In this document: in pieces, positions 1 through 55,107 of the stretch
How positions within the stretch are numbered: the first letter of the stretch is position 1
Layout of the letters: each line of letters opens with the position of its first letter
DNA from: Candidatus Omnitrophota bacterium
Lineage (GTDB): Bacteria > Omnitrophota > Gorgyraeia > Gygaellales > Profunditerraquicolaceae
Reading direction: 5' to 3'
Assembly: GCA_025453395.1 (NCBI GenBank)
Contig: JALOQK010000007.1
Span: 6,524-70,523 of the forward strand
Length of the DNA: 64,000 nt
Notes under the pieces: model-generated
What the model was told of the DNA's origin: nothing
Database searches by the model: none
What the model saw: the letters and a program-made list of their open reading frames with translations, nothing else
Program-made: the position numbers and the translations under genes

Positions 1-3000
1 CTGATTAATAATTTTTCTAATACTTCTTCCGAATATCCTCTCTCTCTAAGATACGCCCTGTGCAACGCCTGTGCCTGCTCATGGGTTGATCCGCTAAGGT
101 GAGCAACTTCGTGAATCAATAAAGCGGCGAGATAATCATTCAGTGTTTTTGCATCTAAGTTACCTTGGAAATATTTTACTAAGGCCAGGGCAATATAAAC
201 TGTGGGGGTCTTTTTGTCTTTGCCTTGTCCGGCATGGACATACTGCCAGAGCTTGGCGCTAAAATACATCAGGCCTAAGAATCCCGGAGGAGATCTTTCC
301 TTGGGAACAACTAAATCTATGGCCAGCTTATTCTTGGTGTTCTCATCCACCACTGTTCCCTGCGCATCCAGGAAGGCCAAAGCAGCGCTCTTGGCTGCGG
401 CAACAGCATCTTCAAATCCGGTGTTATTGCCTACTATGTTATGCTGGGTATGCGGATCAACTAACAGATCATTGATGCCGGGCATTCCCTGGGTGCCTTT
501 GTGCGGAATGGCGGAGTTAAGGAAGTCGTGGTTAGGCTGACCTTCGCCTTTTCCAAGGTGCTCTTCCAAATACTGTTTTGCAGCGAGAATGTCATAACCA
601 GTGAGAACAGTTTCAGTATTATAGTCTACAAAATACCCATCTCCTGAGCAAGAAGCTCCGCCTGCAAATCCCTGATTTATTATTTCATTTCCTGGAACGT
701 TTTTATACGTAGCTACGATAGCTAAAGCAGTCTTAAGACCAGAAACTATTTCCTGCGGCTTATCTGTTTTTGATAATGCTACAGTGATTAAATCCTTAAT
801 ATCTGATAAAAATAGGCTGAATCCTGTTGCCGCGTTAATAATTCTCATTGTATCTTGAATATCGGGTATTCGCGGTAAGACAATATTGATTAAATCTTTA
901 ATGTCGGATAAAGAGATCCCACTATGTGCTAATGATTCAAAAATTTCTATCGTGACTTTAATATCAGCTGCTCGTTCTAAGACAATATTGATCAAATCTT
1001 TAGCATCAGATAACACCATATTACCATACCCTGCTGCTTTAAGAATTCTTATGGTAAGTTGCATATCGCTTGTTTTTGTTAATGCAAAATTAATTAAATC
1101 TTTAGTATTAGGCAAAGAGAACTGCTCCATAGCAATTGCTTGAACGATATCTATAGCATCACGGATATTGCCTGTTTTTAATAAAATAAAGTCAAATAAA
1201 TCATTAATATCTAAAAGTGAATAACAATACAACAACCTCCTGAGAAGCTCCAGATTATTTTCGATATCTATATTTCTAGCTACAAAGAAATTGATTGAGT
1301 CTTTAATTTTGTCTAGTAGGCAATTCTCTCTACTTGCCGTTTGTATTACTAGCCCTATCCTTGCGATTGGCCAACCTTTTGATAACATAAAATCAATCAA
1401 ATCTAAGCGTTTAGAAATGGAGAATTTATTTCTCCAAATATCAGAACTTGCTAAATTTAACCTATCTATTTCTTGAACACTTAAATTTTTTCTTAAATAA
1501 TGATTTAATTTATTTAAAAAACTTATAAGAATGGTGTTTCCAAACAAGACCGTAGGAATTAACGTGATGATCCATACAAAACAGCCAAGACCAAATGCTG
1601 CTGGCCAAGAAGAACCGTTCTTTATAGCTACAACAAGGTAAATTGCTGATGCTAATATGGATAATCCACTTACAAAATTCTTATTATATTTTTGCTCTTT
1701 AGAAGTTATTTTTTGAGCAATATTAAGTTTAAAACTCAATACTCGCTCAATCCGTTCTATTTTATTTTGATTTAATAAAAACAGGCAACAGATAAATATG
1801 GGAACCGATATAATTGTAGCGGCAGCAACTACAATAAAACCAAGGCTACTAATAAATGGGTGGTAAAAAATGAGGTCTTTTATGCCGCTTATAGTAACTT
1901 CTGGAATTCTATCTCCAGGAGCAATTTCTCCATTACAACCAATACCCAAAAACGCTAAAGCTGAAACTAATCCTAATAACAGTAAATTATTACGATTGGT
2001 GAAAAATCTCCAAGCTCTGCTTAAAATTACTTTACCGCTGCCCGTTGATAAGATGACCGCATTCTCCTCCGATTCACCACCAGCCCTAAAATCGCAAATC
2101 TGGCCAAACTGTTCTTTTTGAAAAGCTTCAATTTTTACTTGAAGAGCTGAAGGCAGCACGGTTAAATCGCGCTTAATCTTGGCTTCAGCTAAATTTTTAT
2201 CAAAATTAGTATTTTCTTGGTGGGTTAAACCGGGGATTAAAGCCGCGCGTAATTCATGCTCAATACTGTCAGCTTTTGCATCTGCGGGCAAGATTATCGT
2301 AATATTGGCGGCTGTAGGCGTAGACTCGTCCAGAATACATGGCCCGTATTTCCAGCCATCCGGCGCGCGGCTAAAATGAATACCGCGCTGCTTGATAAGC
2401 TCTCTAAAATCTATCGCAACCTTACACAACTCAAATCTCCTGGTGAGATTATCTATTGCTTCTTTTATAAGATCTTCCTTAACGTCAGAATTAAAGTTGG
2501 CTCTTCCGAACTCCTTGATAACCCAAATCCGCACATTATGCCCCTGAACCCGCTGATTGTGCCGCGCTACAGCGCGATTACGCTCATCTATTCTTTTTTT
2601 AAACCAATCAAGTATCAATCCAATAATTCCTATTTTGATAATATTGCCATTTTCATCTCTGACTATATTGCCCTTATTATCTTTCTTATCAAACGAACCT
2701 GCGCCATGAATAACTCTGCTCACCCATGATGCCAGTGTTTCAACTTTTACATCATTCATTATCCAGGGTATTTTTAATTCGTTTACCTTCCGGATTAAAT
2801 CATTATCCTTACCTATTTTTCTACCTGCAAATTTAAGCTGAATCTGTTTTGCCCATAGCATTACCCTTATTTTAGCCGGGTAATAAAGTACGCTCAAAAT
2901 ATAGGCGACAAATGGCCCGATATGTAAGGTAGCGCCCTGATGATTTCTTCTTGAATAAGCATAGTTAATTGCGAGCTCGATAACACCAACTGCAACTGCA

Positions 3001-6000
3001 ATCGCTGCGCTGATTCCGCCAAGGGCAATGCCCAAAGGAATTGCAGAACCAATCGTTAATAGACCCAGAGTTTTTAACCATTTCGTATCATGACCTTTTA
3101 TTCTCGGATAAAACTGATTTAATAAGACTAAACCCATACCAACTGCAACTGCAATCGCTGCGCTGATTCCGCCAAGGGCAATGCCTAAAGGAATTGCCGC
3201 AGCAATAGTAAGCAAGGCCAAAGTTTTTAAGCGGATAGAATGCAACAGGTATAAGCCTATCACTGCCAGAGTAGCAATAACCAAACTAGCCATGATATAA
3301 ATAACCGCGGCTTGGGAAAAACCAAGCAAGCTAAGGCCAATCAAAACCACAGCTGGAGAAATAGCCAAAAGTCCCTGAACAAGCCCAATTAAGAACTTTT
3401 GTATCATGAGCGGTAAATTCTCCATCAACTCTTGTGTCTTTAAAGGTAATCTTATTATAAAATTTTTTCTTGTAACTTTTGCCAATCCTCTGCTTAAAGT
3501 TTCTGCTATTGGCTTACCTTTTGCCAATTTTCCGCTTATAGCTTCTGCTATTTTAAATGTACCATTTTTGCGCGGGTTGCACATAAACGGACCAAAGGCC
3601 CAAGCCAGAGGCATTGCCAGTAAAAAGACATTGATTGCCCAGCCTAAGGGATCAAACGGCGCGCGCAAAGCCACAACCAAAAGCAACAGATTAGCTAAGA
3701 ATATGCCAAAGGAAAACTCCTTGGCCATATTCCAGAAAGTAGTCCTGACTAAAACCGGAGACCGGTCAGTTAAGCTGTATTTATCCCTGGAGTGTAAACC
3801 CTCGGTGATTAATTTATAGGCGTGCGGCGGAATAAAAGCCACAAAGAATAAGAATAAAATCGGGAAGTAAAGCATAAATAATCCCATGCCCTTAACCGCG
3901 CCATACCTCTCGGTAAAATATTCAATAGTCTGCAGGTTAATGGACTGGGCAAAAACCAACCCGGCATAGGTGAATAACCACGGCCAGAATAACCCGGCAT
4001 ACACGGCAAAAGGAAGCAGAGTGGCGCAGACAATCATCGCAATATTAGTGGCTAAGACCAGCGGCTTTCTTAAATAGAACCCAGAGGTATACAGCGCCTC
4101 TACCTTGGCTGTATAATGCACATAATCACTGCTAATAAACTCCCAGAAGATAGGGCTTAAGCTAGTCTTAGACACCGGGCCGGCAAATCTCTGAATAAAG
4201 CCGACTGAATCATAAATTGATTTTTCCTGCGACCCCTTGAAACAGATATATTCAACGTGCTTAGTGCCGTATCCGGCAGTAAGCAATAAATAGCTGGTTA
4301 TAGTGTCTTCAATAATCTGCGATGCTTCAACTCCGCCTACGCTCTCCAAAGCCGCTATATCAATAACCATCTTTCCGAACCCGCCTTCTCGGCCAACCCT
4401 GGCTTTAACTGACCTGATAGGAATATTCCAGGTATTTTCGCCTGTGGCATTACATACAATTTCCGGGCTGTATTCTTCGCCGTATACTCTATAGCTGGCT
4501 GAAAGCAGGCCTAATGTCCGGTCTTCCTGGAACTCACGGAAGACATTGGGCAGATAAATAAAATCTTCTACTTCCTGCCTGTGGCCAACATCCATACATA
4601 CAATGCGCGGGGTCCTGATATAAGAGCGCATCTGACACCAGCCGCCGTATTTCGGGTTAAAAGAGGGATTCCTGCCAGGGAACATGCAAATTACATGCGG
4701 CATATTAGCCCAAGGCCTGCTCGGATCCGGACTATGCCATTTCCCATCAGGATTAAGCCTGGGGTCATTACCTACTTCTGCATCAACAACAAACCCGTAT
4801 TCTCCAGGAATTTGGCGTTTGAATTGGGCTTCAACACTACTCCTCTTGGTGGAAGAGTATTTAAATATAATCTTTACATGCTCCTTGGCCCAGCTCTCTA
4901 ACGCGGCATTATATCTTGTCTCTTCCACCGGATCAGACAAATCTGCGTGGGCAATAATCCCCAAGCGATGGGCTAGCATCTTATATGACCACACAGCAGC
5001 TAAACGCTCGCTTTCAGTAGTCTTCCAAGCGCCTTCTGTTCTCCAACACAGCCAATCTTCCATCATATTAGTTAACTGAACATCAGTTAAGCTATTTCCT
5101 TTTAAGACAGTAAATACATCTCCTGCTCTCTTCGGAGAAAGTAAAATATCCCTATTGTCATCTGTAATTACCACTCCGCAAGCAGGGGCCAAGACATCAC
5201 TAATAAACAATCTCCACTCATAGCTGTGCTTAGAGAAAATCATTTCAAACTGGGTCATGTCAATGTCAATCACTCGTTCATCATCGGGATTTTCCCATTT
5301 TCCTTTAGCATCCACTCCCGGCATCCAATCCCTGCCTTCTTTGGTATCCCTTAAGTACACCCTATAAGGCTCGGCAGCCATGGAACCCTGGATAGTCAAT
5401 GTTTCTACTTGTGCCTGATTATCAATGCTGATTTTCTCCATATAGTAGCGATTTACCAGATCCACGATTCTTTCCCGGACAAAAGCAAGCTCGGGGACAT
5501 TGGCTTCATGGCCATCTAAAATCCCTAACAGACTGGCTTTTTCTTCTTTAGAGATCAACGGGCCGCGCCCAGCTTTGATATCAGTGAAACTGCCGTCTAT
5601 GCCGCCCCTTAAATCCTCCACAAACTTCATCCAGATATAGCGGTAGCTCGGATCTGCCTCAATTATCTCGCGGATCTTCTCAAGCGCTGTTTTACAATCA
5701 GTGACACTAACCAGGTTTTCCTTGCGCACGATATTTCTGCGTAATGCCGCGTAATTTGCCTGAGTAATGGAAAAGAAGGAAAGAATTATATTCAATAATA
5801 AAGGTAGGTAGAAAGCAATCTTCCCCCACCAAGGAACCCCGACAGGAGACCATAAACCAAATAAAACAAAAACCAACAAGCCATTATAAATAAACCACTC
5901 GGCAAAAGTTATAACCCAAAACCTTGAAGAAACACCCGAGGCAGGTTTGGCTTCCGGCGCAGAGCGCTCGCCAAACATGCCCAGCAAAATAGCGCACAGG

Positions 6001-30000: not shown

Positions 30001-33000
30001 TTGCGCCTATATGCATCAACAATAGAAAATGCGGCTACGGCTTTAACTTTTATCTTTTCTATAAGCTGCTTTGTCTCTTCTTGGCTTAAGCCTAATTTCT
30101 GACAAACCTGCTCTATGGTCATAGCGTGGGCAGTCAAACTAATATTAACGACTTTACCTTCACTATCAACGCGTACGCCCATGCCGGTATAAACCGGATT
30201 ATTATTAGCATCACGAGATACAAATACTCTCAAATTCCAATCTTGAGGAATCCCGTTTTCTTCAAAGAGAGGTGGTACTATTCTCTCCTGCATAATAACG
30301 CTATGATCTCTTTTTAATAAATCTACTATGGCTTTTGCTATCTCTTCATCAGATGCGTTTGACTTAAATACCTTAACTCCAAATCCCGCCCACCCGTCAG
30401 ATGGCTTAACTACGACTTCTTGCCCATGCGCTAACCTGAATTTACGGACTAAACTAATAACATCTTGAACATTACCTTCCCCTCTTATTACTGATGGTGC
30501 TAACTTTATGTTTCCTTCATTGTCAATATCAACAAAAAGTAATTCGTCGCTGTGTGATTTATTTACTGCCTCCGATAAACCCACCCTATCTCTCTCGGGG
30601 GCGTTTGACAGCACAAACGACATAGACGACGGAGCAGCTACGCCGTTCTCTTCCAATAAAGCATTAACCAAGGGCTTATTCCCAGCAGTATACTCAAAAC
30701 TATGCGATTCAGAAGTAGGAACCAGCAAAGGCTCTTCTGTATTGTTCTGCGCACTATTATTAGAAGTATGTGGATACTGCGCCCAAACATCGCCGTTTCT
30801 GTATAATAAGTAATGCGCCTCAACCGGCCTTGCGGAATCGGAGAAGTTCGCGAGAACAAATCTATACTGATGCCCTTTAGTTTTAATTAAAATTAATGCT
30901 CTCTTAATAAATACCCTTCCGTCCTTGAAAATTACCCATGAAGGATCCAAAACAAACAAAGCATTTGAATCTGGCTGAACTACCATATTACGAGCAAGCA
31001 CAGTAACTTCGTTATGCCCAATAATATTTACGCCTTTAGACGAACGGCCTTCCAAATGTATGATGTTGGGGGCGTTTTCCTTAATAAATTTATAGCCGTC
31101 ATCAGTTACTTCAATATCTAACACAACCCCGCCCTCTTTGATCTTACTGCCGACTCTTAATAACTCCAGAGCCCTTAAAGCTTCTTCTTTGTTTGGTGTA
31201 ACGATAGCATTAGATGACGATGCATTAGTTACGGGCTCGTCAGAAGTACGGATTAAATTTTCCGCGGCATCTACATTAGTAAATGTGGTTTCTTGATTAA
31301 CACTAACTGACTTAGATTCTTTTGTTTCATGATCTAGTTGATAAGCATAGTAATCATTTCTACCTACTGGCTTGATAATCACATGGCCCTGTTTATCCAT
31401 AGAAACATCAAAATCACCCAATTTTGTATAAATACGCCTGGGAGCTAATAAAGCGTCTAATTCAAATTCAACAGAAATAAATTCTTGGGGATTGGTTTTG
31501 CTACGGATATCAATCTTGACAATCGCGGGCTCTTCTGCTTTATTAGAAGATACTTTCTGTACAATAATATTTACTTCTTGTGCTAGTTCATAGGCGGGGG
31601 CTTCCCTAGAAGCTGAAGGAGTAGAAACTCCTTCGGAATTAAACTTAACTTCCGATTCTTCTTGTTTAACCTCGGCGGCATCCGGCGGGGCGTTTTCCTG
31701 CTTGGGGTCTGATTTCTTGCCCTTATAATCATACGCAGTAATGCTAATCTGGAATTTCTTGCTGAACAAACCCTTACCTTTAATATCAATATCATAGCCG
31801 CGGCCAATACCTGTTGCTTTATCAAAATTAAGCTGGTCAATAAACTGGCCGTTTTGAAGTTTATCTTTGGAAATTACCACTTCTTCATTTTTATCTCCCA
31901 CCTTAACATCAAAGACTAACACATTGAAGTTTCCTTTAGTTAAACGGAACTTGCTTACTGCGGTTTTTAATATCTTATCTATAAATCTTCTTGCCGGAGC
32001 CTGCACATCCGCGTAAAAATCAAATTTATTCGCTGGTACTAACTGGCCGTTGCGGTCAACCCGCAAAACATTCTCTTGGTTTGCCTTTTTGTCTTGGTAT
32101 TGCCCTTTGACTGCCCCAAAGAAACCTTTGGATAATGTAATAGTCCCGGTGCCGATATCTACTGTAGAGCTTGCGTTCAAATCCACAATTTGGGTTTTCT
32201 TTACCCGAGGCGCATTTGCATCCGCTCCCGGAACATACCATTCCAAAAGCAAAGTTCCATCTGCCTGCTGGGTAATGGTAATTCCTCCAAGAACCCAGCG
32301 CCTTCTGCCATCTTTACTATTAACTTCTGTCTTATCATAAGCCTTAGTAACATCAATTTTGGCATTCTCGCGGGCAACAGGAGAATTATCCTGCGGCACG
32401 CCCCACCTTTGCGTTAAGAACATTGGAATACCATAATCATCGGCGTTAGTCAGTTCTACTCCTGCCTTCATCGCAGATAAATACGCCTTAATGTAATTTT
32501 CCCGGTCAAAGCCCTCATAATAATTCCAATCTGTGCGCCATCCCAGATTAGATGCCCTTAATAATGGATTCATGAATTGCGCCAAACCAAGCAACATCCT
32601 AGTTGTAAAATATGTCCCTCTTTTAGTATCATATTTCAGGATAAAATCCTGCGAGCCCGGACGGAATTCTACCCATTTATTCGCGCTTAAAACCTGATAA
32701 GGAGTAAAACTATACGGTGTTCTTAAACCGGGGTCTACCGGTGATATTTTTATCTTGCCATCGGCATCAAAATCTGCCACAAACCCGTCTTGATAATAAG
32801 GCGCTAATTTTTTAATGTCTTTCTTCTTTAAGTTTCTGCCATTTGAGGCATCCTTCTGGGCCCAGAAAGCGTATTTAAGGCTCTTATTGATCAGGCTCTT
32901 TTGGGCATCTACTATATTTCTTAAATTTAACCCTCCCAAATCGCCAAGAATATTGTATGAAATAATATTCCTAAATATATTAAGCCTAGCCGCATCTCTT

Positions 33001-36000
33001 ATGGCTTGGGTCTTTAATTTCTCTTCTGAAGCTACTACTGAATTTCTATAGACAAAGTTTTTTAAACTATTTATAAAATTTTGGACTGGATTCATAGCCT
33101 TTAAATCATCTTTGGCCTGCTGGGTTATACCATTTATATAATGAATGCTTCTGCCGGATAAAGAACGGGCTAACCCCTCCTGCACAAACTCAAGTTTAAG
33201 CTGAACATTGCCCGCTAAAATTGTTTTCCCGGACAACAAACTCACAATATCCGCGTCATTAAGCCTGTCTGCCAAAACCTGCTGCGCGGCAAAACGCACT
33301 TCTTCAGAGGCATCAAACTGCGCTAAATGCAGCAAATCAGTGTTGCTGCTGCTAGAAGATAAAGAAATTCTGTTGGCCATAATCTTTAATTCACGCACAT
33401 CCTGGCTGTTTAAATCAAGGGCTTCTTCGTCATGGAAAGTTATTTTTACGTCTCTTTGTTCTAACGCCAAAATATCCTGCACTGTCTTTTCCTTATCCTG
33501 ATCAGACAACGACCAGAAATTATTAATCCTATTTCTTAAATCATCTGCGTCGGGAGGATTCTTTAAATCTTTTCGGTTGTAATCTAATGCCTCTACTTCA
33601 GCGTCAAAAAGCCCTAAATGCGTGGAAGGAGCAGCTGGTGCGGCATTGTGGATTTCCTGGATTTTATTTATTACCTCTGGAGTAGCCTGATTTAAATAAT
33701 TAGCAGAATAATCAGAGAAGCTGATATTTAAGTTTTGCGCATTCTGCCTATGACCGTTTAATTCAGCTAAAGCATGCTCTACTGCCTGTTCTAATTCTGC
33801 CCCTTCCAAAGAAGCATCCACATAAATAACCCCTCTTCTTAATCCTACATGCTCTAACGCACCAGAGGCATCTTTTAATCCGCGTACTCTCTTAATCTGC
33901 GCCTGCTGAGGCATAAATTCTATCTTGTGCGAACCTGCCGGCAAACTGGACACCACCTGCTGGCCGTTAGCAGATATACTAACTACCGGAGCACTGGGAT
34001 TATAATTTTGTGTTGCATTAGCAGCAATAACCGCGCCTGATGAATTGCCTGACGCAATATTTAAATCATTCCCGTTTTGAGTAACTGTTACTGCCTGATC
34101 GCCATAATTGGTAATGGTTGTCTGGCCATTAGGACTAACCTCAATTACAATATTGGGCAGTGCCTGATTTTGCGGCAAGGTAACGCCGTTTAAAACACCG
34201 TTTACATTTACTCCGCCTAAGACCGTCGTGTCCACGCCAGGGACATTGATGTTGGTACCGCCGTTTTCCGCAGCAATAACCGCATCTACATGCCCGGCTG
34301 GAGTAACCCCGATTCCGGTATTGGAAACAGCCGGGTTAGAAGGGTTTGTCTGATTCTGAAAACGATTATTGGGAATATTAAAATTAAGGTGCGCAGAAAG
34401 AGTATTTGTGTTCGGATGCCGGTCATAGGCTTCCTGGAACCACTCCATCACCTGCTGATAGACTGCCTGTGCATAAGCATAATCTTCTGCTGAAGTATAA
34501 TCAATCCTTCTTGGAGCTGCGGCAATGCCGCCTGTTCTGTCAAATATCACCCTCATTACTGCGTTGGTAATTTGTTCTCTAAAAGCTTCTTCTCCGAAAA
34601 AGTCTATAAAACCTCCAACTCTATTCCGCAAAGCTTCATTCTTAATTGCTCCGGCCAATATTCTGCCATCGCCTAGAACGTCAGCGATAAATGTCTGTAT
34701 CTGTGACAATATAGGTATATTCATCAAGCCTTCATACAGAATTGGCCTGACAAAATGCATGGTCGGGCCAAAAGTAAAGGCAACCTTTACGCCTTCCCAC
34801 GAAGAAATGGACATCTGATTAGCCGCATATTTTAAAGAACCAAAAATAGATCCGTCTTTTAAGTCTTGGATCCGGTTTAAAATATTTTCTCTCTCTGCGC
34901 CATGGACAGTTCCAACACGCTGCTCTAATTCTGTTATCTCTACAGCCCTTTGCAGTTCCCAAAGGCTTTTACCGTGATTAGGATCAATGCCTAATTCTAA
35001 TGCCCTGCGGGCCATTCCCGGGCCGACAATCCCCTCTTCGTCCAGAATAGTAGCAGTAACCACTTCTCTTATCCGCATTGATTTATCTTTATCGCTATAG
35101 GAAGATTTTCTGATTAAGGCAATAAGGTTCTTGGCTTTCTCGGCTTTCTCGGGAGCGACATTTTTAGCAAGAAAATCTTCTGCGCTCTGGCGGTTTTCGT
35201 CATGCATCCAAGCTAAAATCTTATTCGCCGTATCAACACCAATCTGGTCAAGATTAAACATCTGACGCACCTGCTCTGCTACCCAGCTTTCCTTGCTAAA
35301 CTTACCATACAATAATAAATTCTCTACTATCGGAAAGGTCGGCATCATCAGGGCCAATTGCGGAACCATATGCCGCGCTTCTTGCGCCAGATTACCCACA
35401 ACCTGCCAAGGAGTAGCGGTTATACCCTTAAAAGTAAACCACTCTACATATAATTTATTCGGATTCAAAAGCCCGGGAGCTAATATTTTAGTGCCTAATA
35501 ACGCCCAGTTAACTGCTTCATAGATTTGTTCGTGCTTAGAAATAAAATCACTGTGAGGAGCTCCAAATATCCAGCCAACAGTTAAAGCCCATTCTGCCAG
35601 ATTCCCGCCTCTAAATATACCAAGTAACCCCTTAGAATCATTGCCCCACAACCTGCCCTTAACTTCTTCTCGCCACCACTTAAGAGAATTTTCTTTAAAA
35701 TTAAGCTTTTCATTACTGCCACCTTCGGCTCCTAGGCGCCGCGCCAAAGAAACCATAAGCCATGTATTATTAAAATTACGTATAGTATCTGCAAAAACCG
35801 GGCCAATCACCCCGCCATTTTTAAACTCTTTGCCAAAAATCTTTCCCTGTTGTAATACATCTGTGCCAATATCCACCACTGCCCAGACATAAAGAGAAGG
35901 GGATTTCACAAAACCCAATAGGTTCTTTTCGATTAAAGTGCTGCGCGCATCAAACTCAATCTTATCGAAATCAAGATTGCCCTTTTTGGTTATTAACTCT

Positions 36001-39000
36001 CTATTCCATTTGAGGAAGCCATAGAAAATAGAGCCTGCGGCATAACCAGCAATAAAATCCTGAACCGGAGTTGCCCATCTGTAGTTTTCTTTACTCTTGT
36101 TGCCGCCAGAGACAAACGGATAAAGAAAATGATTTGCCAAGCCTGATCCGGATACAGCTACAGCGCTACTTGTAGCAAAGGAATAGGGGTTGACCACATC
36201 TTTTGCTCTTGCCGCAGGCATAATCTTCATTCCGGCAAGCATTAATAACGCGCCAGTTACGGTTTGGAATAAAAACTCGCCCTTATTCTCGCCAAAAGGA
36301 GTAGACCCGCGGATAATCGCCCTTGAGCCGCCTAAAACCGCTCCAGTAACAAGCGCGCTTGTTGTAGGATATTGGCTAAAAACTTTATACAAAGGCACCC
36401 ATCCGAATAGAGGAGATAAGGCTTCCGCGCCTAATGCCCATAAGGCTGCGGTTCTGCCCTGCTGGGTATAGATTCTGGTGGCGACAAGTGGATCTAGGAA
36501 CTCACCATTAACAACTAAACTCTTGCCTTCATTATATAAAGTAAAACCGCCTCCTATGACGTTGTACCAAAATAAAGCTTGCTTGCCAGCTTTTATGGCT
36601 TTAGCTGCCATAGTAGCTTTTCTGGATAATTCATAAAAACCGAATATGCTCCTAAAGGTACTGACTGTTTTTACAGTTGCGGCGCCTGTGGCCGATACTC
36701 CTTCTACTTTTGTTGGAGACAATATTGACCATATAACTGCACCTACCAGTAAAGCCGCATCCGCGCCTAATTCTATGGAATTCTGGGTCAATTCACGTAT
36801 ATAATCATTGGCCGCCATTGCCGGAGAAAGAACGCCCAATATATTCTTCAAGTTATCTTTGTTTGCCGGAACGGATAAATCGTTCTTTAGGGCCAGCTTC
36901 CAGACCTGCATCAAATACGGCTCGAGATTATTTATATAATAGGATTTACCATTGCTTAATATGGCAAAGTTGTTCTCGTTTTTCCCGCTGTCTATACTAT
37001 TGATGAACTCTAATTTCTCAACCCCTTTACCCAGATGTTCAATAGCCCACTCCAGATTGGAATTAAACCTCCCGCTATCTATATAATAAGATTTACCCGT
37101 TGCTTTGCCATCTGCACCAAGCTGAAATATTTCCACATCATCAGAACCCCACCACCACCACGCCTTACTTTCCTTTTTATGCTCTATGTTAACTAAAACC
37201 CTGACAACTGTTGCTTTTGTGCCATCAGTTTTATCTATTTCTTTAACGTTATTAGGATTAGAAAGATAATCTTTTATAAGCGCCTTATCCACATCACTGT
37301 GTTTGGCCTGTTGCTCAAAATTCTCTTTTTGAATCCAGGCCTCCATATATCGATCTGTTCCGCCAACCACGCCTTCATTGAGTTCTTTTGCGCTTTCTGC
37401 TAATTTAACAGGATCCTTGCCCCAATCCGCAGGCAAAGCTTCACTTGAAATAGTAACGGTTTCTCCGGCAGCATTCTTGGCATATTTAGACCACCACCAT
37501 CCGCGCTTTTCTGTGCTGTTAACAATAGCACTCCTGCCGTATCCATCTGTAACTACTTCCCAGGAAACTTTTTTGCCTGGGCGCTTCTTGTCCCATTCAC
37601 TTGCCGGGATCCAATTGATTTTTTCTTTTCCTCCTAAAATAGTATCTACTGTCATCCCCTCATCATCCGGAAGAAGCGCGATATATTTAGATTTGCCATC
37701 TTTGTCTATTTCTTCCTGAAATACCGAGAAAAACGTGTTTCTGTTCTGCCGCAGGCCCCGGAAGCTCGACTCAATAAAATTCTTAAAGCTTGCCGAATCC
37801 CATAATAATATATTGCCTTTTATTCCTAATCCGGATGAAAGGGAAAAACCATCAACCCCGATCCCGTTTAGCGCAAAAAACTGCTTTCCGCTTGCAGTCA
37901 AATCAATCAATCCTTTTTCTGCATCAATATTATATTTTGTTATCTGGGAACTAGCGGTAATCCCTAACTGACCGTCCCCGATATTATCTCTTGCGGCATT
38001 CTCCTTTTTAGAACTATCTTCCCTGCCGGTTTTAATCAATATAGAATTAATACCTACTGAACTATCTTCAACAACCATATTTCTAAAGAAGGACGGCAAT
38101 GGAACGCCTTTATAGGTAAAAATTCCGTCTGCGACAAAGCCTTCCCTGACTGGGCCTTTGGCGCCATAAACAGCATCCCAGGCAATTATTTTCTGCATAG
38201 CGCCCAGATCATCAAAAAGCGATCCGGAAACTCCATAAATAGTAGCTCCCGTGCCTAAGAACTTCCCAAATTCATTAGTAAATTTATGGCCGCGATAAAC
38301 AAGCGGATCTTGAATTGTAGCGGGGTCAATTCTTTGCACTTTATTGTCCTGGATATCGGTATAATCTTTTAGCTTGTAGCTGCCTATGCGGCTTTGAGTA
38401 AGAGACTGGTCTGAACCTTCGCCTCTTTCTATTTCACCCGCGCCGCTAAAGCTTATATTCTTTCCTGTATCAAAATAACGCGCGATGGCTCTTTCTTTCC
38501 CTTTTTCGCCTTCTTTGGTAAATTCAATGCGCGGATTAGCGCCATTTTTAAATACAAGCCCTGATTCATTGGCTAAAATTTTATTCGTATGTATGTAGTT
38601 ATTGGCAATGAATAGCTCATCCGGGCGCGCCCAGGTTATTTTTGAGCCATCTCCTGTATAATGAAGCGTAGGCATTAATAGCTCATTATTCAAAGCAAAG
38701 ACTAACCTGCCGGTTTTGCCGCTGTCAAAAACAACTCCGCCAAAGAAATCATCTGTCTTAAAGATGCCGCGCGAAGTAATGGTTGCAATAGTCGCCACGT
38801 CTTGGGCTTTCGTAGCTTTTGGCTCTTGAGGATTAGCCAAGGATTCATATTTGGAACTATACGGGGAGCTAACTGACCAGTAATTCCCAGCGCCTGTTAA
38901 TGCCGCGCCAGAAAACGCCTTATTCTCCGGCAATACCAAATTCCCTATTAAAGTAGAAAATTCTTTTGCCCCTGAAGCAAAAGACGCGGTTACCTGCTGG

Positions 39001-42000
39001 TCAATCTGGCCTAACGCAGAAGGGCTGGTGCCTGCTGGACCGCTATAGACCCAATCATTGCCATCGCGCTTAAACCATCCTGCTCCTGAAGTCACCGTAT
39101 AATCTATATTCCCTATCTGCTTAAAAGATACTCCATCTTTAGAAGGATTGGCCTTTAAAAAATTCTCCGCCTCATCAAGCAACTTGCCATACAATTCTAA
39201 ATCTGATAAAGAAACATCTTGATCATTATTCAAAGACGCCAAAGCATGAGCCTTATTAAAAAGCTCCTGCCCCTGAGAATCAGCAAAATATCCCTCTGCC
39301 ATATCTTTCTGATCTTGAAGGTTTTTCAGCCTAAACTTAGATAACTCTAACTTCGCTATATTATTGCTCTTATCAACCCTCAATGATTTCAGAAAACCCG
39401 CATAAGGCAAAGCTTCTTTTTCTTTAGCTAGAGATTCTATTTCTCCTTCGACTTGCCTTATAAGTTTATTCAATCTATCGGAGTAAGATTTTCTAAAAGA
39501 TTCTTTATCTTTTACATCAACCGATTTATCTTCTAATACGGCTTTTACTATATAGACTAAATCCGTGTTCTCTCTTCCTTTCGCTAGCAAAGCTTTCATC
39601 CTATCGTTATCTTCTTTTAATTTGGCAATTTCAGGTAGATTCACTGTATGATTTTCATCAATGCCGAATTTCCTGTGAATCAACTGCGGAGAAAAATTAT
39701 CTGCGGGGACAAAATTCCCATCTTTGCTATAGCTTACAAATCTACCTAATAAATCCTGCTCCATGGACTTGGGAGAATTAGGCTTATCGGGAAGCTGTAA
39801 AACCATATGCTCTAAATTACCGGTCCCGGCGTCAAACAACAGGCCCTTTTCAAAATCAAAATTTAACGCCCCCTCAAATAATGTTTGGGTTGTATTTTTA
39901 TCATCCCTGAAAGTTAGCCCCTTGCTTCGAATATCAGCAAAAACCCCGGACTGCTCTAATAGATACTTTTTATAAACTTCCGGATTAGTTTCTTTTAAAA
40001 TAGCTAAATCTTTCTCACCTTTAGTAAAATTCTCTACGTTTAATCTTACCGCCGGATCATAGACTAATTTCTTAGAAGCAGAGATGCGCGTTCCGGCAAG
40101 CCCAAAAGTCGGCTGCATCAAAGGATTATCTACCTGAAGAACATAAGTTAGCCTTCTTGCCTGTCCGGTCTTCTCATCTATCCCGGCAGCATTCACGTCT
40201 ATAAATTTACCCTTACCGGAAATTTCTTGGCCGGGCTTTGCTTCTACTATATTAAGGTAAGCATCAAAGACAATTTTGCTTACTTCGCTTTCAGCTTTTT
40301 CATCGGGGACCTTGCCATTAAGCCAATCATTGATCTGGACTGAATTAATCTTCAGCTGATTCAATATCTTTTGAGCGTCTTCTTTGGTCAAGCCTAATTT
40401 TCCCAGATCAATCCCTGAATCGCTAAGGTTATCCACAGTTACTGATTTTATGTCTGTTTTCTTGCTGCCACGCAATGCCAAAAGAATATCCTGGCCGGGG
40501 TTATACCTTATATTAGGCATATATACTGGCACATAATAATCGCCACCGGTTTTTGTCGCCCCACCCCATGATAATAAAAGCCCATATTTAGGATCTGAAT
40601 GCGCGCCCCGATAGGCCAACGGCTCACCTCTATAAACCAGTGGGCCAGCAGAAATCTGGTTATTGTCAATTGAACTTTGTGTGGCCTGCCAACTGCCAAA
40701 ATTTTCCAATAAGATATCTTCATTATTTATATCTTTCAAAACACTATCCAGGATAACTTCGGCGGCCTTGCCTTTTCCCTCTAAATCTGCTGCCATCGCG
40801 TCCTTTAAAGTCTGGCCTTCCTGCACTTCTACAGTCTTATACTCGCCATTTACCCTTACCCAGAGAGCCGTTTTCTTGTTAAAGATGGTTTCCGCGCTAA
40901 CATTAACCCCGCGTGTAAACCAGGCATCCTGCCCATAAACCACCACCGCGCTTTTTTCTAATAACTCCAGATTATTAACAATTAAATCCGCTTCTTTCAC
41001 CCCGTTTTCTTGAGCTATCTGGCTTAAAGTCTTAGAGCCATCTATTGTTTTCTTTTCTTTGTTTATAACAAGTTCGGTTATTCCAATGGCTGATAGCTGG
41101 ATATCTGGATTAATTTCAAAAGGCCGCACCTTGCTCATCTCGGCAAACACCGGGCTCCAGGAAGCATCCTTGTTAAAATCTACAACACGAGAAACTTGGC
41201 CGTCTTTGCCTTCTTTATCAGAGAAGGAAATTAATGATCCTGTTTTCCATTCGCGCAAACCTATACCCCAGCTAAATGGAACCGCTGTGCCAGATTTTCC
41301 AGCTACACCATCTATTACTCCATAACGGGAATAGTTAAACAGATTTACACTCTGCAAAGAGCCCCCGGTTAAAGCAAACCCGGATTTATCCTGGGTAAAA
41401 TCAAGTATCTTCTGTTTGTCTTCGGATAATTTAAACTGGCCTAAAGTAAAACGGCTGAAGACATCAAATCTTTTATCTCCGGCAAAAATTGCGCTCACCG
41501 CCACATCACCATCAATAAGCTCCGACTGGCCCTTGCCACCACCCACAGGAAAAGCAAAAGAAGGAATATTCTGGGCATAAAAATTATAGTGATTATCAAT
41601 ATTTAGGGCAAACTCTCCGGGCGAAGATATAGAGACAGGGTTGCCATTAACATCAACAGTAATTATCGCAGTTTCAGTCTTGGATAAATTCGGACTTTTC
41701 TGCCAACTGCTATAATTCTGCTCTACTGTAACCTGCTTGATCGCCTCAAGATGCGCCTTAGTCCCGTCCTGGGTAGTTGCCTCCAATGCCACAGGAGGCA
41801 TACTGGCAAGAACATCTGACACATCATCCTTAAGTGCTTCCTGTGCTGCTGTAGCAGGCGGCCTTAGGGATAAAGAAGGATCGGCCTCAAAAACCATATA
41901 AGCCCGCAGGTTCAGGGATTCAGCTCCCCGCATGCTCCATTCATAATTTTCTTCAACTCCGCGCAGGTCCCATTCATTATAATAATGGTAAGGATCGATT

Positions 42001-45000
42001 TCTACTATCCGATCTCCACCCGCGTTTCCTTTGATAAGTTTATCAAGCAGCGATGTTTCGGGATCCAAGTTTAAAGCCGAGTCTTTTGTACCAGCACTTA
42101 AGAAACCTATATCCTGCGGAATAATCCTATACAGCCCTGTGAAAAGGGCGCAACCATCGCTTTTAATAGTGGCGGTTTCCGGGATCTTACGCATGGCATC
42201 CAGAAGAAGCCCGACTGCCTGGTCATGAGAAACCGCTGAAGGCACCTTGACATCCTGCGGGTTATCTACGTTAATATTGTAGCGGCCCAGGAACGCAGAA
42301 AGTCCGTCCTTATCATTATTTTTCAGAATGTTTTCCAGCTCAAGCGCGGCATTTTTGTCTTTTATGGTAAGGCCTAATTTTGCGGCCTCTTCCGGCTTAA
42401 GCGAAGCCTTAAGCATTTCACCAAACTCTTTATCAAGGCCTACACCTTTTAAAAAGCTCGAGATAATGTCCATACGACTAACGGTCCTGTCCGGCTCAGC
42501 AAAGCTCATAGACCTGTTCACGATATACGCGGCAACAAAACCCTTATCAGCTATACCCTCTCTTGCCCCTGTAAGATAAAGAATGCCTGTTTTTGGGGCA
42601 TAATCAAAAAGCACGCTTGTCTTAGCTTCAGAATTAAAGATATCTCCTCTTGCGTCATCGGTCTTGCCGCCGATAAAGATCTCTCCATTGATATTGGCGT
42701 AGAGATTGGGCTTACCTGCCTCGATCTTAGCCATGCCTTTTAATGCGCCATCCTGGATTGTCTTAATATATCCTTCGGGCGCGGCAGGCATCTGCGCTTC
42801 AAGGCTGTGGCCATTTATTAAGCCGGTAGTGTATTGAAGATGGGCGCGCCCGTTATTATCCAGATAATATGCCCCTTCGTTACCGAAGCGGGCGATCACA
42901 TCAACCGCATAATCATCAGACAAAGTAAAATTGTATTCTGCGGTCCCGGATAACTGGGCTCTGTATCCCTGCTTATTTACATTATAATAAATACCTTTAC
43001 CTAAATCAGTTTCTCCGGTTAGGGGATCCCAATGCACAAGCGCTGAGTTAGCAAGCTGCGCAGCATAGGCTCTACCGGCGAAATCAATCTTTGCTACCAC
43101 CTGTCCATTATCCTTTATGCCTGAACCTGCGTTCTCTTGCTGTGGAAGAAGCGCCTGCCCAACCGGGACGGTGGCAACCTTATCTAAACCTTCTACAAGC
43201 GCCCTGTCTTGAGGATTCTGAGAATGTAATACAGAATAGCTACCGGCATCTTTCTTTAAATCCTCCCACAACTGACTTGCCTTCTGCATGGCTTTTTGCT
43301 TATCTATAAGGCTTCTGGTATCTGGACTGGAATCAATATCTTTAATCACGCCTGCTAATTCTTTACCCTTATCCCCCATCTTCTCTAATTCCGGGATGGC
43401 TTCCGGAGCAGGGATTTGTGCGGACTGAGAAACCGGGCCAATGCCATTTGCCATTACCTCGCCAGTGGCTCCGACGCGATTTCCAGTGGAATTAAAATAA
43501 AGTTGGCCATCATGCGCCTCTAATAATCCAGTAGCTATGCCCTCAAATTCTTTGCCGTTGCTTTTTACCGAGGTTAACGCCTCAACTGTCATTTCTTTTG
43601 GCGAACGCTTAATGTCCCATTTGGCATTACTATCACCGTCAAAATCCGCCTGAATATCTAAATTCTTAATCGTGTAAGATTGCGCGTTCTCTAATCCCTG
43701 GATCAAAGAATTCCCGGAATAAGAAAATTCTTTTCCCGGTTCATAAGTAAAACGGCTGGACATGTTCGCCCAGCTTAACTGTTTATTGGCGTTTGCCCCG
43801 AACATGGCATCTTTACCGTCTTTGCCAAAAAGATGCGTATAGGTGGAAATTTTCTCTTCGCCTTCTTTATTGATCATCTTTAACGATGTCCCGGCCTTAA
43901 AATCCACATGATGCCCTAAATTAGCCACATCATAATGCAAGCCCTCACCAATATTCATCCTACCGTCTAAGGTTGAGAAAGCGATATGCATACCCTCTTT
44001 GCCGGCAACGGCAGTTCCGGTTTCGCCTTTACCTATAATTAATGCCGCGGAAATTCCGCTTGGGTTGGCAGGCTTCTCGCCTTTTCCGCCGCTTGTTTTT
44101 GCAAGATCCGGCAGGATCGGCTGGGCCTCTTGGGCCTCAAAATTATATTCCGCTTTGGCAAGGGTTCTTAAGAAAGGAGTGGAAAATACCGTGCCGTTTT
44201 TACTAACGCTTGCAAAATCTATTGTGGAAGCCAAGCGCACAGGATCATCTATTTCTTGGCCAAAAGTTGCATAGGTGCTTCCAGCGGCAAGGCTGCCTTT
44301 CGCGCCTTCGGAAGTATATTCTAAAGAAGAACCTTTCTTTAATAAAAGCCCGTTCTCCTGACTGTCTTGAGTGACTATTCCCTTGACCCATCCTGAATCA
44401 ACTCCTGTCCCTGCGCCGGGCGAAAGGACTAATTCTGTGCTATTCTTATCCGCGTAATAATTAAACAAACCTAATTTCGCGGAATCAGGAATATCATTGC
44501 CAAAACCGGAAATTCTCCCCTGATGCCCTAATTTGGGATCACCAAAAAGATTACCGTCGCTTGCTACTACAAATCTACCGATAACGTCCTCGGGAGCGTA
44601 TTTAAGTTTACGCGTTGCCCCGCTTTGGCCAAAACCAGTGATATACTGTTTGCCGGCAAAAAATAAAGTATCTCCGACCCTGACATCTGCTCCGGTAGCA
44701 TAACTAATATGCGCGAAAGGCCTATCCGGAGTAACAAATATCACCGCAACATCAGAATTCGGAATATTGGTATATCCATATTCAAACGGCCGCATTGCCT
44801 CTGCTCTATTGAGCGCTAAATCAGGCGTGCTTTTTGTCTCGGGTTTACCATCAATCATATTACCGATATTCTCATTGATAAAAGCGATGTTCTGATAAGT
44901 CATGTTATTGATGTGCCCGCTAAAGCCTTCAGGGGTGATCTGAAAATTATCGCCTTTTACTGTAGAAACCTGCGCTGGATTTGTGCCAGAGCCAATCTTA

Positions 45001-49200: not shown

Positions 49201-49452
49201 AGAAGTAACTGGAGTTGCGGCTTCAAAACCGGAATTTAAGCTTGCGCCAATTGCCGCGGTACCAATAGAGATACCCGCGCTGGTAGCTATTTTGCCCCAA
49301 TCCACTTTAGAAATTTCTCCGCCGCCTGCGGAACTCCGAGCAGCAAAAGCTAATGGTTGTAATATTAAACAAAAAATTATTATTAGGGAAATAAGGTTTC
49401 CCCCTTTCCCCAATCTTTGACTGGTTTTCATCTGCAACTTTTTTTCAGTCAT
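46294..49452 (-). CDS. Exported 1052-aa protein with N-terminal signal/anchor and a G/S/T/A/N-rich N-terminal half; function unknown. Probably co-transcribed with the giant gene (1-nt spacer).
   Basis: ORF track. The N-terminus is MTEKKLQMKTSQRLGKGGNLISLIIIFCLILQPLAFAARSSAGGG. The stop at 46294-46296 is followed by the giant-gene ATG at 46290-46292. Confidence 0.8.
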   Translation of the reverse strand: MTEKKLQMKTSQRLGKGGNLISLIIIFCLILQPLAFAARSSAGGGEISKVDWGKIATSAGISIGTAAIGASLNSGFEAATPVTSETATMGTRFSNTFTGMGNLITNTPGSTAVNAIKPFSAMGDALKNSFALTNMAKGYTTFVAASQVGRLVGVAGNYYGWKPATTMIVSGVAIGATAGFLNPSDALGDAKPTEALNSQINNPSLPTHSFGITQTTNSFSNFGFNTNFSNMLKGASVGALSGFANSAVIAALDRDKINSAKNPGATAQILGMFAGVSATNLGRSIWDPKVYHYDSKYIDAKSGNEVSLDKNKMWQFSDVSVVPKGPLEPGRYLAEPTSNPDILKWTDTKAQIGGGQIFGRFAKAAFVDTFNAQSWPGLAASSMSIIATNSLPEKKKYLAPLVGGLVQSVSYPIFSGMANTYGLDASRYFGSKQDKIEARLRYDYTLRAAGVDLASAKDIALIQKTYKDYRDGKITFEQYNKELNKIASIPFELLLVQGDAQKLSQEQLQNKINNALGANNSGIVEQERINSKALAGSLNLQRGSIDEAQMNRNLAIASLRKQLAEKMPMFAGKVSMGQLKGLADALTTDEALKQIGVTRGQIFASQVYSGVTSGVFESLVTGGLQSALDKNFGDERNMTTKMLFSSGVNMAASVIRGAAWSLGWNNSTADKSEWQNELDFVMPQPYKESFYLTDVKTGSMILDQYGQAVENPSYNAIQDVLSQTSYDRDLLAFNKFVATYNMTPGNGLILHRERMKWDYNQGAEDPRWVASLVADDRNPGLMRSVGASMQQSNVEWANKMFTFGLPLTSERGKAGFGVDSSQISSFAWHNYANSYSAYSLPTLVNIYNSKGLAETLSYLYSQSNQDAAGNAIAGALVQVPGVTRMFNMQPQRLVRLHTLKDVSEPITRQQLAFKYAAKAAGQSENLIWNADYGFTNTFNKQTASNYADNPLARKGGFETLSTEISYPEKPASWLDAYLVDSASELTLKTEQGLQHWYMPADLSRNRYSIQAQVFHGGMGAIETKFWVFPNPMYGVRPQMSESDYLRKSGLTK

Positions 49453-49599
49453 TTTTGAGTTTTTAAGCTCTTTGTGAAACTATTTGTTATCAACTTAAAA
49501 AGAAAACCGGACTGTCAAATACCTGATTTCTCGTCGGTATCGGCAGCCCGGCTATCTTAAGCTTTTACTTTTTCGCTTTACTTTTTTCGCTTTTAAGAT

Positions 49600-49620: not shown

Positions 49621-49669
49621 TTTCTCGGAGTTTGCCTGTTCGTTCCGTGGCTTTCTTAACGACACTTGA

Positions 49670-54298: not shown

Positions 54299-54315
54299 TT
54301 TACCTCTTTCTTATG

Positions 54316-54750: not shown

Positions 54751-54753
54751 CTT

Positions 54754-55104: not shown

Positions 55105-55107
55105 AAC

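Follow-up and report, generated by a model that had tools for sequence, protein, structure and literature searches.

The stretch of DNA analysed here, referred to below as the window, covers 64,000 nucleotides (nt) of contig JALOQK010000007.1 (positions 6,524 to 70,523) from the Candidatus Omnitrophota bacterium assembly GCA_025453395.1. Its main occupant is a giant open reading frame (ORF) at positions 1-46292, which remains open at the left edge of the window and begins with a conserved module of 281 residues, hereafter the head. This ORF is immediately preceded by a gene encoding 1,052 residues (orf1052), then by a leader resembling a cyclic di-GMP (c-di-GMP) riboswitch and finally by the genes of a Tad pilus locus. 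All genes between 46294 and 64000 are carried by the strand of the giant ORF, and every feature described below lies on that minus strand. Unless stated otherwise, coordinates are those of the window.

Extent and coding signal of the giant reading frame

A six-frame scan of the window found the minus strand to be free of stop codons from 46301 to 3, that is over 15,433 codons; the second-longest stop-free run amounts to 1,061 codons. The remaining two minus frames hold 1,478 and 1,108 stops across the same span. An in-frame TAA (46302-46304) bounds the run, and the earliest start codon available beyond this TAA is the ATG at 46290-46292, which gives 15,430 residues (46,290 nt) within the window and a true gene that is longer. 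At the base composition of the window, the probability of meeting 15,433 consecutive stop-free codons by chance is about 1e-448. The first-pass annotation of this DNA had described a single incomplete frame running from the same ATG to position 1, with codons at coordinates divisible by 3 and a HEVAH motif encoded at 99-113. The start, the motif and the register were all confirmed, the low coordinates of all codons being divisible by 3, and the full-length scan for an in-frame stop returned none. The same annotation had remarked that no minus-strand ORF was listed in 1-46292, which is explained by the construction of the list: ORFs running off an edge are omitted and the giant ORF is therefore absent. 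The use of an alternative genetic code was considered and rejected, as TAA, TAG and TGA all serve as stops in the neighbouring genes.

The coding signal was evaluated using codon-usage log-odds trained on ten neighbouring genes and scored in sixteen bins of 1,000 codons. Values in the frame of the giant ORF range from 0.19 to 0.34 bits per codon and are positive in all 16 bins; both alternative frames are negative in every one of them. The GC content by codon position equals that of the neighbouring genes and is uniform over the 16 bins. Only three tiny arrays of 21 nt were detected in the gene by Tandem Repeats Finder, and comparison of the protein with itself using BLAST returned one paralogous pair only, formed by two ATP-grasp domains sharing 32% identity. 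Being practically free of repeats over its 46 kb, the ORF lacks the feature that usually leads assemblers astray. Logan contig SRR12684589_96101 (62,196 bp) is 100% identical to window positions 36294-59452; the giant ORF is called on this contig over 14,379 residues, is cut by the contig end, and the contig stops 3.2 kb short of the left end of the window. A literature search returned no paper on this sequencing run. In addition, the exact 1,052-residue product of orf1052 is on record on three contigs. The ORF of more than 46 kb is almost certainly a genuine and uninterrupted giant gene belonging to the class of Omnitrophota genes headed by a C39 peptidase domain. Its last 1,200 residues have no match in an index of 5.8 billion proteins, and its last 500 residues have no relative in the GTDB species genomes or in the JGI metagenome contigs. 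An Rfam scan of the window reported two leader aptamers only, with no catalytic or other RNA inside the giant ORF, and no tRNAs are present in the window.

The head (residues 1-281; 45450-46292, minus strand) was delineated by means of Pfam, homologue, AlphaFold and Foldseek analyses. It comprises a single membrane-spanning helix at residues ~28-48 (46149-46211), identified by a hydropathy scan, and a cysteine-peptidase domain of the C39 fold at residues ~110-262 (45507-45965) which matches Pfam PF03412 (Peptidase C39) with an E-value of 3e-8 and 33.9 bits for a cutoff of 22. The catalytic Cys133 and His220 are invariant in 43 sequences, so that the domain may be catalytically active. The AlphaFold model of the head, computed with 42 homologues, reaches a predicted local distance difference test score (pLDDT) of 84-96 over residues 130-280 and is of low confidence at residues 283-600. 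The top PDB matches of this model in Foldseek are LahT150 (6mpz), PCAT1 and the C39-like domain of HlyB (3zua), with a probability of 1.0 and target template-modelling scores of 0.70-0.75. No prepilin-like or double-glycine motif is found in the head, and its invariant FLPEQVAQA segment comes after the hydrophobic helix rather than before it.

The first 1,200 residues of the giant protein match 46 proteins, always at the N-terminus of the relative itself. The identity amounts to 50-60% over the first 270-280 residues in most cases and to ~42% over 580 residues in four of them. Those that bear a name are nearly all recorded as 'cysteine peptidase family C39 domain-containing protein, partial' from Candidatus Omnitrophota or Omnitrophica. 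A profile of the head, searched among 1.84 billion representatives, retrieved 190 clusters (50% identity) at E<=1e-30 and 396 at E<=1e-10, and among the matches listed the head is nearly always located at or near the N-terminus. The same profile found 96 places in the GTDB species genomes, nearly all in Omnitrophota metagenome-assembled genomes (MAGs) and a few under other bin labels. The highest head identity among the GTDB R232 species representatives is ~61%, which indicates that the species of the window is not represented there. Eighty of these 96 loci, with flanks of 10 kb or up to the contig end, were kept as the set of related loci used throughout. In only three of the 80 loci does the ORF begun by the head meet a stop (409, 2,158 and 2,810 residues); in the other 77 no stop occurs before the locus ends, over up to 3,700 codons. 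Since so large a majority of these ORFs run open to the locus end, the 281-residue head is, as judged from these loci, a reliable sequence marker of giant genes, even on short contigs. Candidatus Omnitrophota MAGs account for nearly every relative of the head and of the Tad genes, in agreement with the Omnitrophota-like character assigned at first pass.

Leader RNA and upstream repeats

The first-pass annotation had recognised the giant gene and its Tad context but had missed a regulatory RNA located ahead of the gene. A gap of 556 nt separates a gene for a pilin-like coiled-coil protein from orf1052, and within it lies an aptamer of the c-di-GMP-I class (49538-49645, minus strand) forming the leader of orf1052 and of the giant gene. 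This aptamer matches Rfam RF03167 (c-di-GMP-I-GGC) over its full length, with 60.5 bits for a gathering threshold of 59 and an E-value of 8e-12. A second c-di-GMP-I aptamer with its own terminator is present at 58466-58573 (minus strand), 153 nt before the gene of a 55-residue Flp pilin; it matches RF01051 with 37.8 bits for a gathering threshold of 35 and is followed by a U-tract. A specific covariance model was then built from 11 sequences and run on the window and the 80 related loci (1.2 Mb, both strands). The model scored the two aptamers at 94 and 65.9 bits, respectively, and returned 82 matches, all of them on the gene strand. Eight related loci were also scanned with Rfam, and each has a match above the gathering threshold ahead of its giant gene. 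The aptamer is located at most 500 nt upstream of the giant start in 65 of the 80 loci (median 167 nt) and farther upstream in eight more, where an ORF resembling orf1052 generally intervenes, as it does in the window. This brings the total to 73 loci; two of the seven loci devoid of a match have no upstream sequence.

The pairing was examined in an alignment of the 82 homologues, which was itself fitted to our covariance model. In the two-helix architecture, 98.8% of the cells are paired, and compensatory changes are observed in 11 of the 19 pairs (220 cells). None of 500 shuffles equalled this covariation, and pairing drops to 30-50% of the cells once the partners are slid by 1-3 columns. 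The core segments GCAAAGCC and GCCGGG.U.CCGA, which correspond to the canonical ligand-contacting nucleotides, are invariant; we take this core to map to positions G20, A47 and C92 of Vc2. The presence of a conserved riboswitch in this position is, on the strength of such comparisons, very likely.

The leader also contains a promoter and a predicted terminator. A sigma-70-like promoter, TTGACA-16-TATACT with a TG extension (49670-49697, minus strand; 11 of 12 consensus matches), is found 25 nt upstream of the aptamer, and 65 of 71 leaders possess an equivalent promoter, 17-28 nt ahead of their aptamer. Downstream, fold predictions reveal an intrinsic terminator at 49497-49553 (minus strand) in which the 3' strand of the aptamer, AGCCGGGCUGCC, pairs with GACAGUCCGG and is followed by UUUUCUUUUU, with the U-tract at 49497-49506. 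The free leader is predicted to adopt this hairpin as its most stable structure (z about -5). Of the 41 leaders examined, 40 possess such a terminator, overlapping the aptamer and ending in a U-tract, and its stem shows compensatory changes. In these predicted folds, the terminator overlapping the aptamer is the expression platform and, as the two structures share a strand, ligand binding should prevent termination, in the manner of an ON switch.

The nature of the ligand can be approached from the core. The Rfam consensus of the canonical family, GACGCAAAGCC, and that of the GGC variant, GACGCGAAGCC, which was reportedly defined by Weinberg and colleagues in PNAS in 2017, differ at one core position, and the discriminating nucleotide is the canonical A in 11 of 11 aligned sequences. 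Three homologous leaders score best with the canonical RF01051 (57-62 bits). These two observations designate c-di-GMP as the most likely ligand. The leader RNA could instead sense another molecule, such as cyclic AMP-GMP (c-GAMP) or a different dinucleotide, or act as an OFF switch. Rfam indeed places the giant-gene aptamer closest to the variant family (60.5 bits for 59), and variants of the c-di-GMP-I fold do sense c-AMP-GMP (PMC7266159). The canonical A, the invariance of the flanking core and the leaders attracted by RF01051 argue against another ligand. An OFF switch is made less plausible by the geometry typical of ON switches, shown by 40 of 41 leaders, in which the aptamer's 3' strand also serves as the terminator's 5' arm. 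Both variants of this alternative are unlikely, and the combination of c-di-GMP as ligand with ON logic is considered probable, as far as alignments and folds allow.

Further aptamers were noticed before Flp pilin genes in several related loci (L007, 878-972; L013, 30-162; L030, 1530-1662; L046, 285-433 in locus coordinates). Counting that of the window, the major pilins concerned are 55-71 residues long, with the motif KKGQSTLEY. From this arrangement, the Tad pilin and the giant gene appear to be under shared second-messenger control.

The leader region is preceded by a repeat array. Three exact copies of the 13-mer AATGTCCAATCTG, whose core is TGTCCA, are found with a 20-nt spacing at 49956-50008 (minus strand), and two near-copies at 60467-60499 (minus strand) lie upstream of orf591, a gene of the Tad locus described below. 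Four matches with at most one mismatch are present in the window, for 0.09 expected. The exact 13-mer occurs in 21 other loci, and versions with at most two mismatches occur in 77 of 81 sources; at this tolerance, 226 copies are on the gene strand and 39 on the opposite strand, for ~13 expected per strand. Of 71 giant-gene leaders, 69 carry the motif ahead of the aptamer and no more than 600 nt from it (median 310 nt). The arrays typically hold two or three copies ~20-30 nt apart with a strong bias for the gene strand. The array is probably a regulator-binding site, judging from its position and orientation, and the product of orf591, which carries a helix-turn-helix (HTH), may be the corresponding regulator. 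A near-copy, AATGTCCAATCAG, was also observed within the coding region of the head itself, ~300-360 nt in, in loci L003-L073 (for instance at 10309 in both L004 and L022), where it encodes the MSNQ of '...KMSNQRIEE...'. It could be a coincidence imposed by the conserved peptide, or an internal binding site.

Riboswitches of the c-di-GMP-I (GEMM-I) type are known to control pili and large adhesins, as exemplified by the Bc2 RNA of the Bacillus thuringiensis collagen adhesion protein (PMC4933901). The present leader resembles the Bc2 type in its aptamer family, its terminator expression platform and its location ahead of surface-attachment genes. It differs by the gene controlled, a 46-kb-plus ORF in an episymbiont or predator of a candidate phylum, and by the promoter and TGTCCA array conserved phylum-wide in the leader. 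The riboswitch is not mentioned in Seymour 2023, West-Roberts 2023 or Nielsen and Lui 2026, and literature searches combining riboswitch with Omnitroph*, or c-di-GMP riboswitch with Tad or giant genes, returned nothing relevant; an earlier mention in connection with the GGC variant is possible. As far as the literature was searched, the riboswitch leader, the shared control of the pilin and the TGTCCA array are new.

The giant protein and its place among known systems

Beyond the head, the protein is nearly devoid of hydrophobic helices up to residue ~6800, net acidic and mostly unannotatable. Near the distal end of this helix-poor stretch of ~6,800 residues are found two paralogous ATP-grasp ligase domains (residues ~5276-5507 and ~5662-5927; 28512-30467) and a DUF7790 domain (residues 6444-6703; 26184-26963; Pfam PF25046, E 1.5e-15, above cutoff). 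The ATP-grasp pair is of the RimK/YheCD/glutathione-synthetase type and was identified by Pfam ATPgrasp_YheCD (E 1.8e-16) in addition to ATPgrasp_ST and ATP-grasp_3. NCBIfam added weak matches to MptN and RimK and, elsewhere, coiled-coil noise only. Besides these domains, no family or PDB match was obtained for residues 282-~6800.

A first cluster of ~20 hydrophobic helices, apparent in a Kyte-Doolittle scan, extends over residues 6829-9483 (17844-25808). It encloses a sub-threshold match to SleB-like cell-wall hydrolases (residues 8270-8376; 21165-21485) and tetratricopeptide repeats (TPR; residues 8848-9071; 19080-19751; TPR_2, 27.8 bits). Residues 9500-13000 are soluble and in part coiled-coil-like, and a second cluster of ~18 hydrophobic helices follows at residues 13093-14917 (1542-7016; hydropathy scan), including a weak match to family-2 glycosyltransferases (GT2; residues 13975-14099; 3996-4370). 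Counted by hydropathy and not by a dedicated predictor, the two clusters together hold ~38 hydrophobic segments, to which the N-terminal helix is added. Searches of PDB sequences were empty for residues 1-9,997 and for the hydrolase-like and GT2-like regions. Two compositional features accompany this layout: cysteine is nearly absent from the first part of the protein (four in residues 1-6500, window ~26800-46292) and enriched in the helix clusters, and the clusters, by their loops, are net positive whereas the soluble parts are net negative. The HEVAH motif at residues 15394-15398 (99-113) is the sole HExxH of the protein, for 0.15 expected by chance. It is located 33 residues from the window edge, has no family match and may be part of a zinc-peptidase domain cut by that edge.

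The body is hardly conserved past residue 300. Collinear similarity was detected in two loci only, L054 and L018; in L054, residues 1002-3127 are matched at 30% identity. When the central region (residues 5200-6830) served as query, a single partial homologue was returned, P0047, a fragment of 2,356 residues filling a whole 7-kb Omnitrophica contig. Residues 1175-2284 of P0047 align with residues 4810-5949 of the giant protein at 48.5% identity, and the first 1,174 residues of the fragment have no counterpart in the window protein. A match restricted to one such block suggests that modules have been shuffled between giant genes.

A mosaic of this kind would also be compatible with a polyprotein, cut by its C39 head or by other proteases into separate enzymes and membrane proteins, a possibility raised by West-Roberts et al. 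(10.1101/2023.11.21.568195). The head has kept the catalytic Cys and His of C39 peptidases, and a central homologue aligned over residues 4810-5949 only suggests independent modules. C39 peptidases, however, normally cut once, after a double-glycine leader, and the self-comparison of the protein revealed neither a recurring cleavage motif nor a repeated linker. Processing into separate products is therefore rather unlikely, although it would be compatible with the interpretation of the locus given below.

The possibility that the 46-kb ORF is an assembly artefact, resulting from an in-frame chimera, a collapsed repeat or genes fused by sequencing errors, had to be considered for a sequence originating from a metagenome assembly, judged at the assembly level, the more so as giant genes are often fragmented or misassembled (10.1101/2023.11.21.568195). 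It is made very improbable by the stop-free run (P ~1e-448), by the uniformity of codon usage, GC by codon position and frame signal in the 16 bins, by the lack of repeats able to mislead an assembler, by the Logan contig, identical over the 23 kb retrieved and carrying the ORF for 14,379 residues, and by the 77 of 80 related loci in which the same head starts an ORF with no stop up to 10 kb further on. A conventional repeat adhesin or toxin of the RTX/LapA type, or a non-ribosomal peptide or polyketide megasynthase, commonly accounts for bacterial genes exceeding 10 kb, and C39-like domains do occur in the type I secretion of RTX proteins (HlyB), but this is hardly credible for a protein without tandem or dispersed repeats, without RTX, Ig-like, cadherin, condensation, adenylation or ketosynthase matches, with ~38 hydrophobic helices in two clusters and with a C39 domain in the giant protein itself rather than in an ABC transporter.

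The giant ORF belongs to an already published kind of gene, of which thousands have been catalogued. Seymour 2023 reported ORFs above 20 kb together with Tad complexes; 77 of the 116 species of Velamenicoccia possess such ORFs, which also occur in other classes and were described as domain-poor and weakly conserved (PMC10066038). The same paper cites Kizina et al. for giant-protein peptides that were three-fold more abundant in attached cells. West-Roberts 2023 described giants of up to 85,804 residues, 46 'giant' genes of more than 90 kb, an N-terminal C39 (or S8) peptidase near a signal peptide, numerous membrane helices, and a divergent SecA_DEAD or SecA preprotein-binding domain in most giants, though not in all. 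According to the same work, the giants are preceded by a secretion locus that exceeds ten genes (gspD/E/F, rcpC) and comes with numerous small class-III-signal-peptide genes, PilZ genes lie downstream, some giants contain GGDEF domains, and two classes are distinguished, termed 'Archaeovorin' and 'Dockerin-type' (10.1101/2023.11.21.568195). Finally, Nielsen and Lui 2026, whose material includes 176 complete genomes, counted 916 Omnitrophota proteins of at least 10,000 residues, with a maximum of 147,155, defined a 24-member architecture cluster with PF03412 (Peptidase C39) and found T2SS/Tad genes flanking 13 of the 14 largest giants (bioRxiv 10.64898/2026.06.07.730766).

The window matches these published giants, which include the 39,678-residue protein of Velamenicoccus archaeovorus LiM (CP019384.1), point by point and is therefore considered a member of the described class. 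The likeness extends to the phylum, the N-terminal C39 domain beside an anchor helix, the many membrane helices, the few recognisable domains, the poor conservation, and the preceding locus of more than ten pilus or secretion genes with gspD/E/F-like and class-III-signal-peptide genes. With 46,290 nt and an open end, the ORF exceeds the size criterion of Seymour (>20 kb). The part available in the window differs by its two ATP-grasp domains and DUF7790, and no HEAT, dockerin, TSP3, GGDEF, NUDIX or GT5/GT1 domain was detectable in residues 1-15,430, SecA_DEAD being treated below. The hallmarks of Archaeovorins are GT5/GT1, methyltransferases, glycosyl hydrolases, NUDIX and HEAT repeats; the window part of this incomplete gene offers only a sub-threshold GT2 match and the TPRs. 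The Dockerin-type is characterised by dockerin and TSP3 matches and internal repeats, of which the window part has none. The subtype, Archaeovorin or Dockerin, is consequently not assignable from the available part. The C39 cluster of Nielsen and Lui, likened here by description, shares the C39 domain as most prominent domain, the inner-membrane anchor and the Tad/T2SS flanks. With the PCAT/AMS exporters (LahT, PCAT1) and HlyB, the head has in common the C39 fold and the conserved Cys and His. It differs in heading a giant membrane protein after a single helix, instead of an ABC transporter, and in the conserved residues following the His, H238 and E240 being nearly invariant here. No double-glycine-leader substrate was identified for the C39 domain of the window.

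Taken as a whole, the locus can be interpreted with good confidence as the 5' part of a C39-headed giant gene at the downstream end of a Tad locus and governed by a riboswitch, along the following lines. Transcription would start at the sigma-70-like promoter and run through the aptamer that overlaps the terminator. c-di-GMP, presumably rising on contact with a surface or host, would bind the aptamer and keep it folded; the folded aptamer would block the terminator and RNA polymerase would read into orf1052 and the giant gene. The second aptamer would likewise relieve termination before the Flp pilin gene, uniting pilus and giant protein in a single c-di-GMP-induced regulon. The giant protein would be inserted in the cell envelope through its ~38 helices as a multi-enzyme, surface-exposed assembly. 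Its exposed soluble regions (hydrolase-like, glycosyltransferase-like, TPR) might serve adhesion, envelope remodelling or attack, its cytoplasmic loops would carry the ligases, and the C39 head may act in the processing of a partner or of the giant protein to which it belongs. Produced alongside the Tad pilus, the protein would serve to attach to a host or prey cell and to attack it or exchange material with it, a role similar to that proposed for Velamenicoccus archaeovorus. Any such biochemical role is put forward with low confidence.

A number of observations weigh against this interpretation. About 90% of the giant protein is without detectable homologue or domain. The SleB-like match is sub-threshold (Pfam Hydrolase_2, E 1.6e-5, 25.9 bits for a cutoff of 27), and a single-sequence AlphaFold model of that region is unusable, with a pLDDT of 40.6. 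The GT2 match is weak as well (Pfam Glyco_trans_2_3, E 4.7e-4, below cutoff), and SecA_DEAD was not detected anywhere in the 15,430 residues available, even with the E-value limit relaxed to 1. The gene continues past the window edge, and left-extension searches did not reach its 3' end. On the regulatory side, the giant-gene aptamer finds its best Rfam match in the GGC variant family, five loci provided with upstream sequence have no detectable aptamer, and the ON logic derives from predicted alternative folds only. Lastly, ATP-grasp enzymes need cytoplasmic ATP, yet the ATP-grasp domains follow a single confident N-terminal helix, which renders the topology uncertain. A weak hydrophobic segment at residues 3173-3193 is the sole candidate to bring these domains inside the cell, and we infer that either this segment truly crosses the membrane or the residues behind the N-terminal helix are not exported by it.

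The broader proposal of an Omnitrophota-wide c-di-GMP regulon, comprising C39-headed giants and Flp pilins, ON-switch leaders and TGTCCA arrays perhaps bound by the orf591 product, is only slightly favoured over its contrary. If correct, the largest known bacterial proteins would be gated within the first 150 nt of their transcript by a second messenger, presumably upon contact with a host or prey cell. It would also tie c-di-GMP signalling, of which PilZ and GGDEF have been noted near other giants, to the expression of both pilus and giant protein, and it bears on when and why an ultra-small cell commits itself to a protein of more than 15,000 residues. The giant ORF itself adds one rather domain-poor example to a catalogued class, and the first-pass annotation illustrates that such genes are recognisable from raw sequence. 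The conserved leader, with its TGTCCA repeats, promoter, aptamer and terminator, provides a small and tractable handle on genes that are otherwise nearly unstudiable: the leader RNA of 110 nt is small enough for in vitro work and its state is readable in metatranscriptomes.

The Tad locus and orf1052

The right part of the window confirms the Tad pilus locus that had been reported beside the giant ORF, with a secretin, a TadZ-TadA fusion, two T2SSF proteins, a TadG-like protein and Flp-motif proteins. Following the direction of transcription, the first gene is a secretin of the RcpA/CpaC type with a TonB_C domain, which starts beyond the right edge, extends down to 63028 and is open to 63999 (minus strand; Pfam Secretin, E 1e-29, and TonB_C). 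It is followed by an ATPase of 717 residues in which TadZ/CpaE and TadA/CpaF are fused (60870-63023; Pfam T2SSE, E 5e-65, and AAA_31/ParA) and by orf591 (58644-60419). The orf591 product starts with an N-terminal HTH giving weak matches, of IS630/Tc3-like type, followed by a proline-rich linker and a large unknown domain. Homologues were observed at the equivalent position inside 14 related Tad loci; from this conserved placement, orf591 is best regarded as a conserved component of the locus rather than a transposase.

The major Flp pilin of 55 residues (58145-58312) is followed by a second and a third Flp-type pilin gene (57713-58096 and 57313-57669), all three being recognised by the G/A-xxxxEY motif in the forms KKGQSTLEY, KNGQSTAEY and EKAQSTLEY. 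The G-xxxxEY processing motif of Flp pilins is present in the translations, as for example in MIKKKGQSTLEYVV. TadB (56419-57288) and TadC (55546-56400), both identified by Pfam T2SSF, precede six small TadE/F-like or Flp/pilin-like proteins with G/A-xxxxEY motifs (53289-55545); about ten small proteins of the locus carry this motif. The series continues with a TadG-like protein (51452-53281; Pfam Tad), orf308 (50535-51461) and the pilin-like coiled-coil protein (50009-50554). Neither the prepilin peptidase TadV/CpaA (A24 peptidase) nor RcpC was found among the window ORFs; TadV/CpaA may be located beyond the right window edge. In comparison with known Tad/Flp systems, the locus shares the secretin, TadZ, TadA, TadB, TadC, the Flp pilins and the minor pilins of TadE/F/G type. 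It differs by the fusion of TadZ to TadA, by the TonB_C domain of the secretin, by an operon that continues into orf1052 and the giant gene and by the lack of TadV and RcpC in the window.

Tad-locus homologues are present upstream and on the same strand in 42 of the 47 related loci with at least 8 kb of upstream sequence, and TadB and TadC in 37 of them. The pairing of giant genes with Tad loci, which the first-pass annotation had presented as typical of Omnitrophota, is thus borne out by these loci and by published surveys (PMC10066038; 10.1101/2023.11.21.568195; 10.64898/2026.06.07.730766). Two gene orders occur. The first, that of the window, is TadB-TadC ... TadG-orf308-orf181-orf1052-giant; in the second, found in relatives, TadB and TadC are immediately ahead of the giant gene.

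The last gene before the giant ORF, orf1052 (46294-49452, minus strand), encodes 1,052 residues with a signal-peptide-like N-terminus and has no family match. Homologues are found in the same position in 13 related loci. Its stop codon lies 1 nt from the giant ATG, and such a spacing implies that the two genes are probably co-transcribed. The N-terminus of the orf1052 product reads RLGKGGNLISLIIIF. Similar basic N-termini were noticed in the ORFs that intervene between the aptamer and the giant gene in loci L031, L065, L069 and L076, with the motif G-(G)-K-G-G/E followed by a hydrophobic stretch. This shared N-terminus may represent a common targeting signal.

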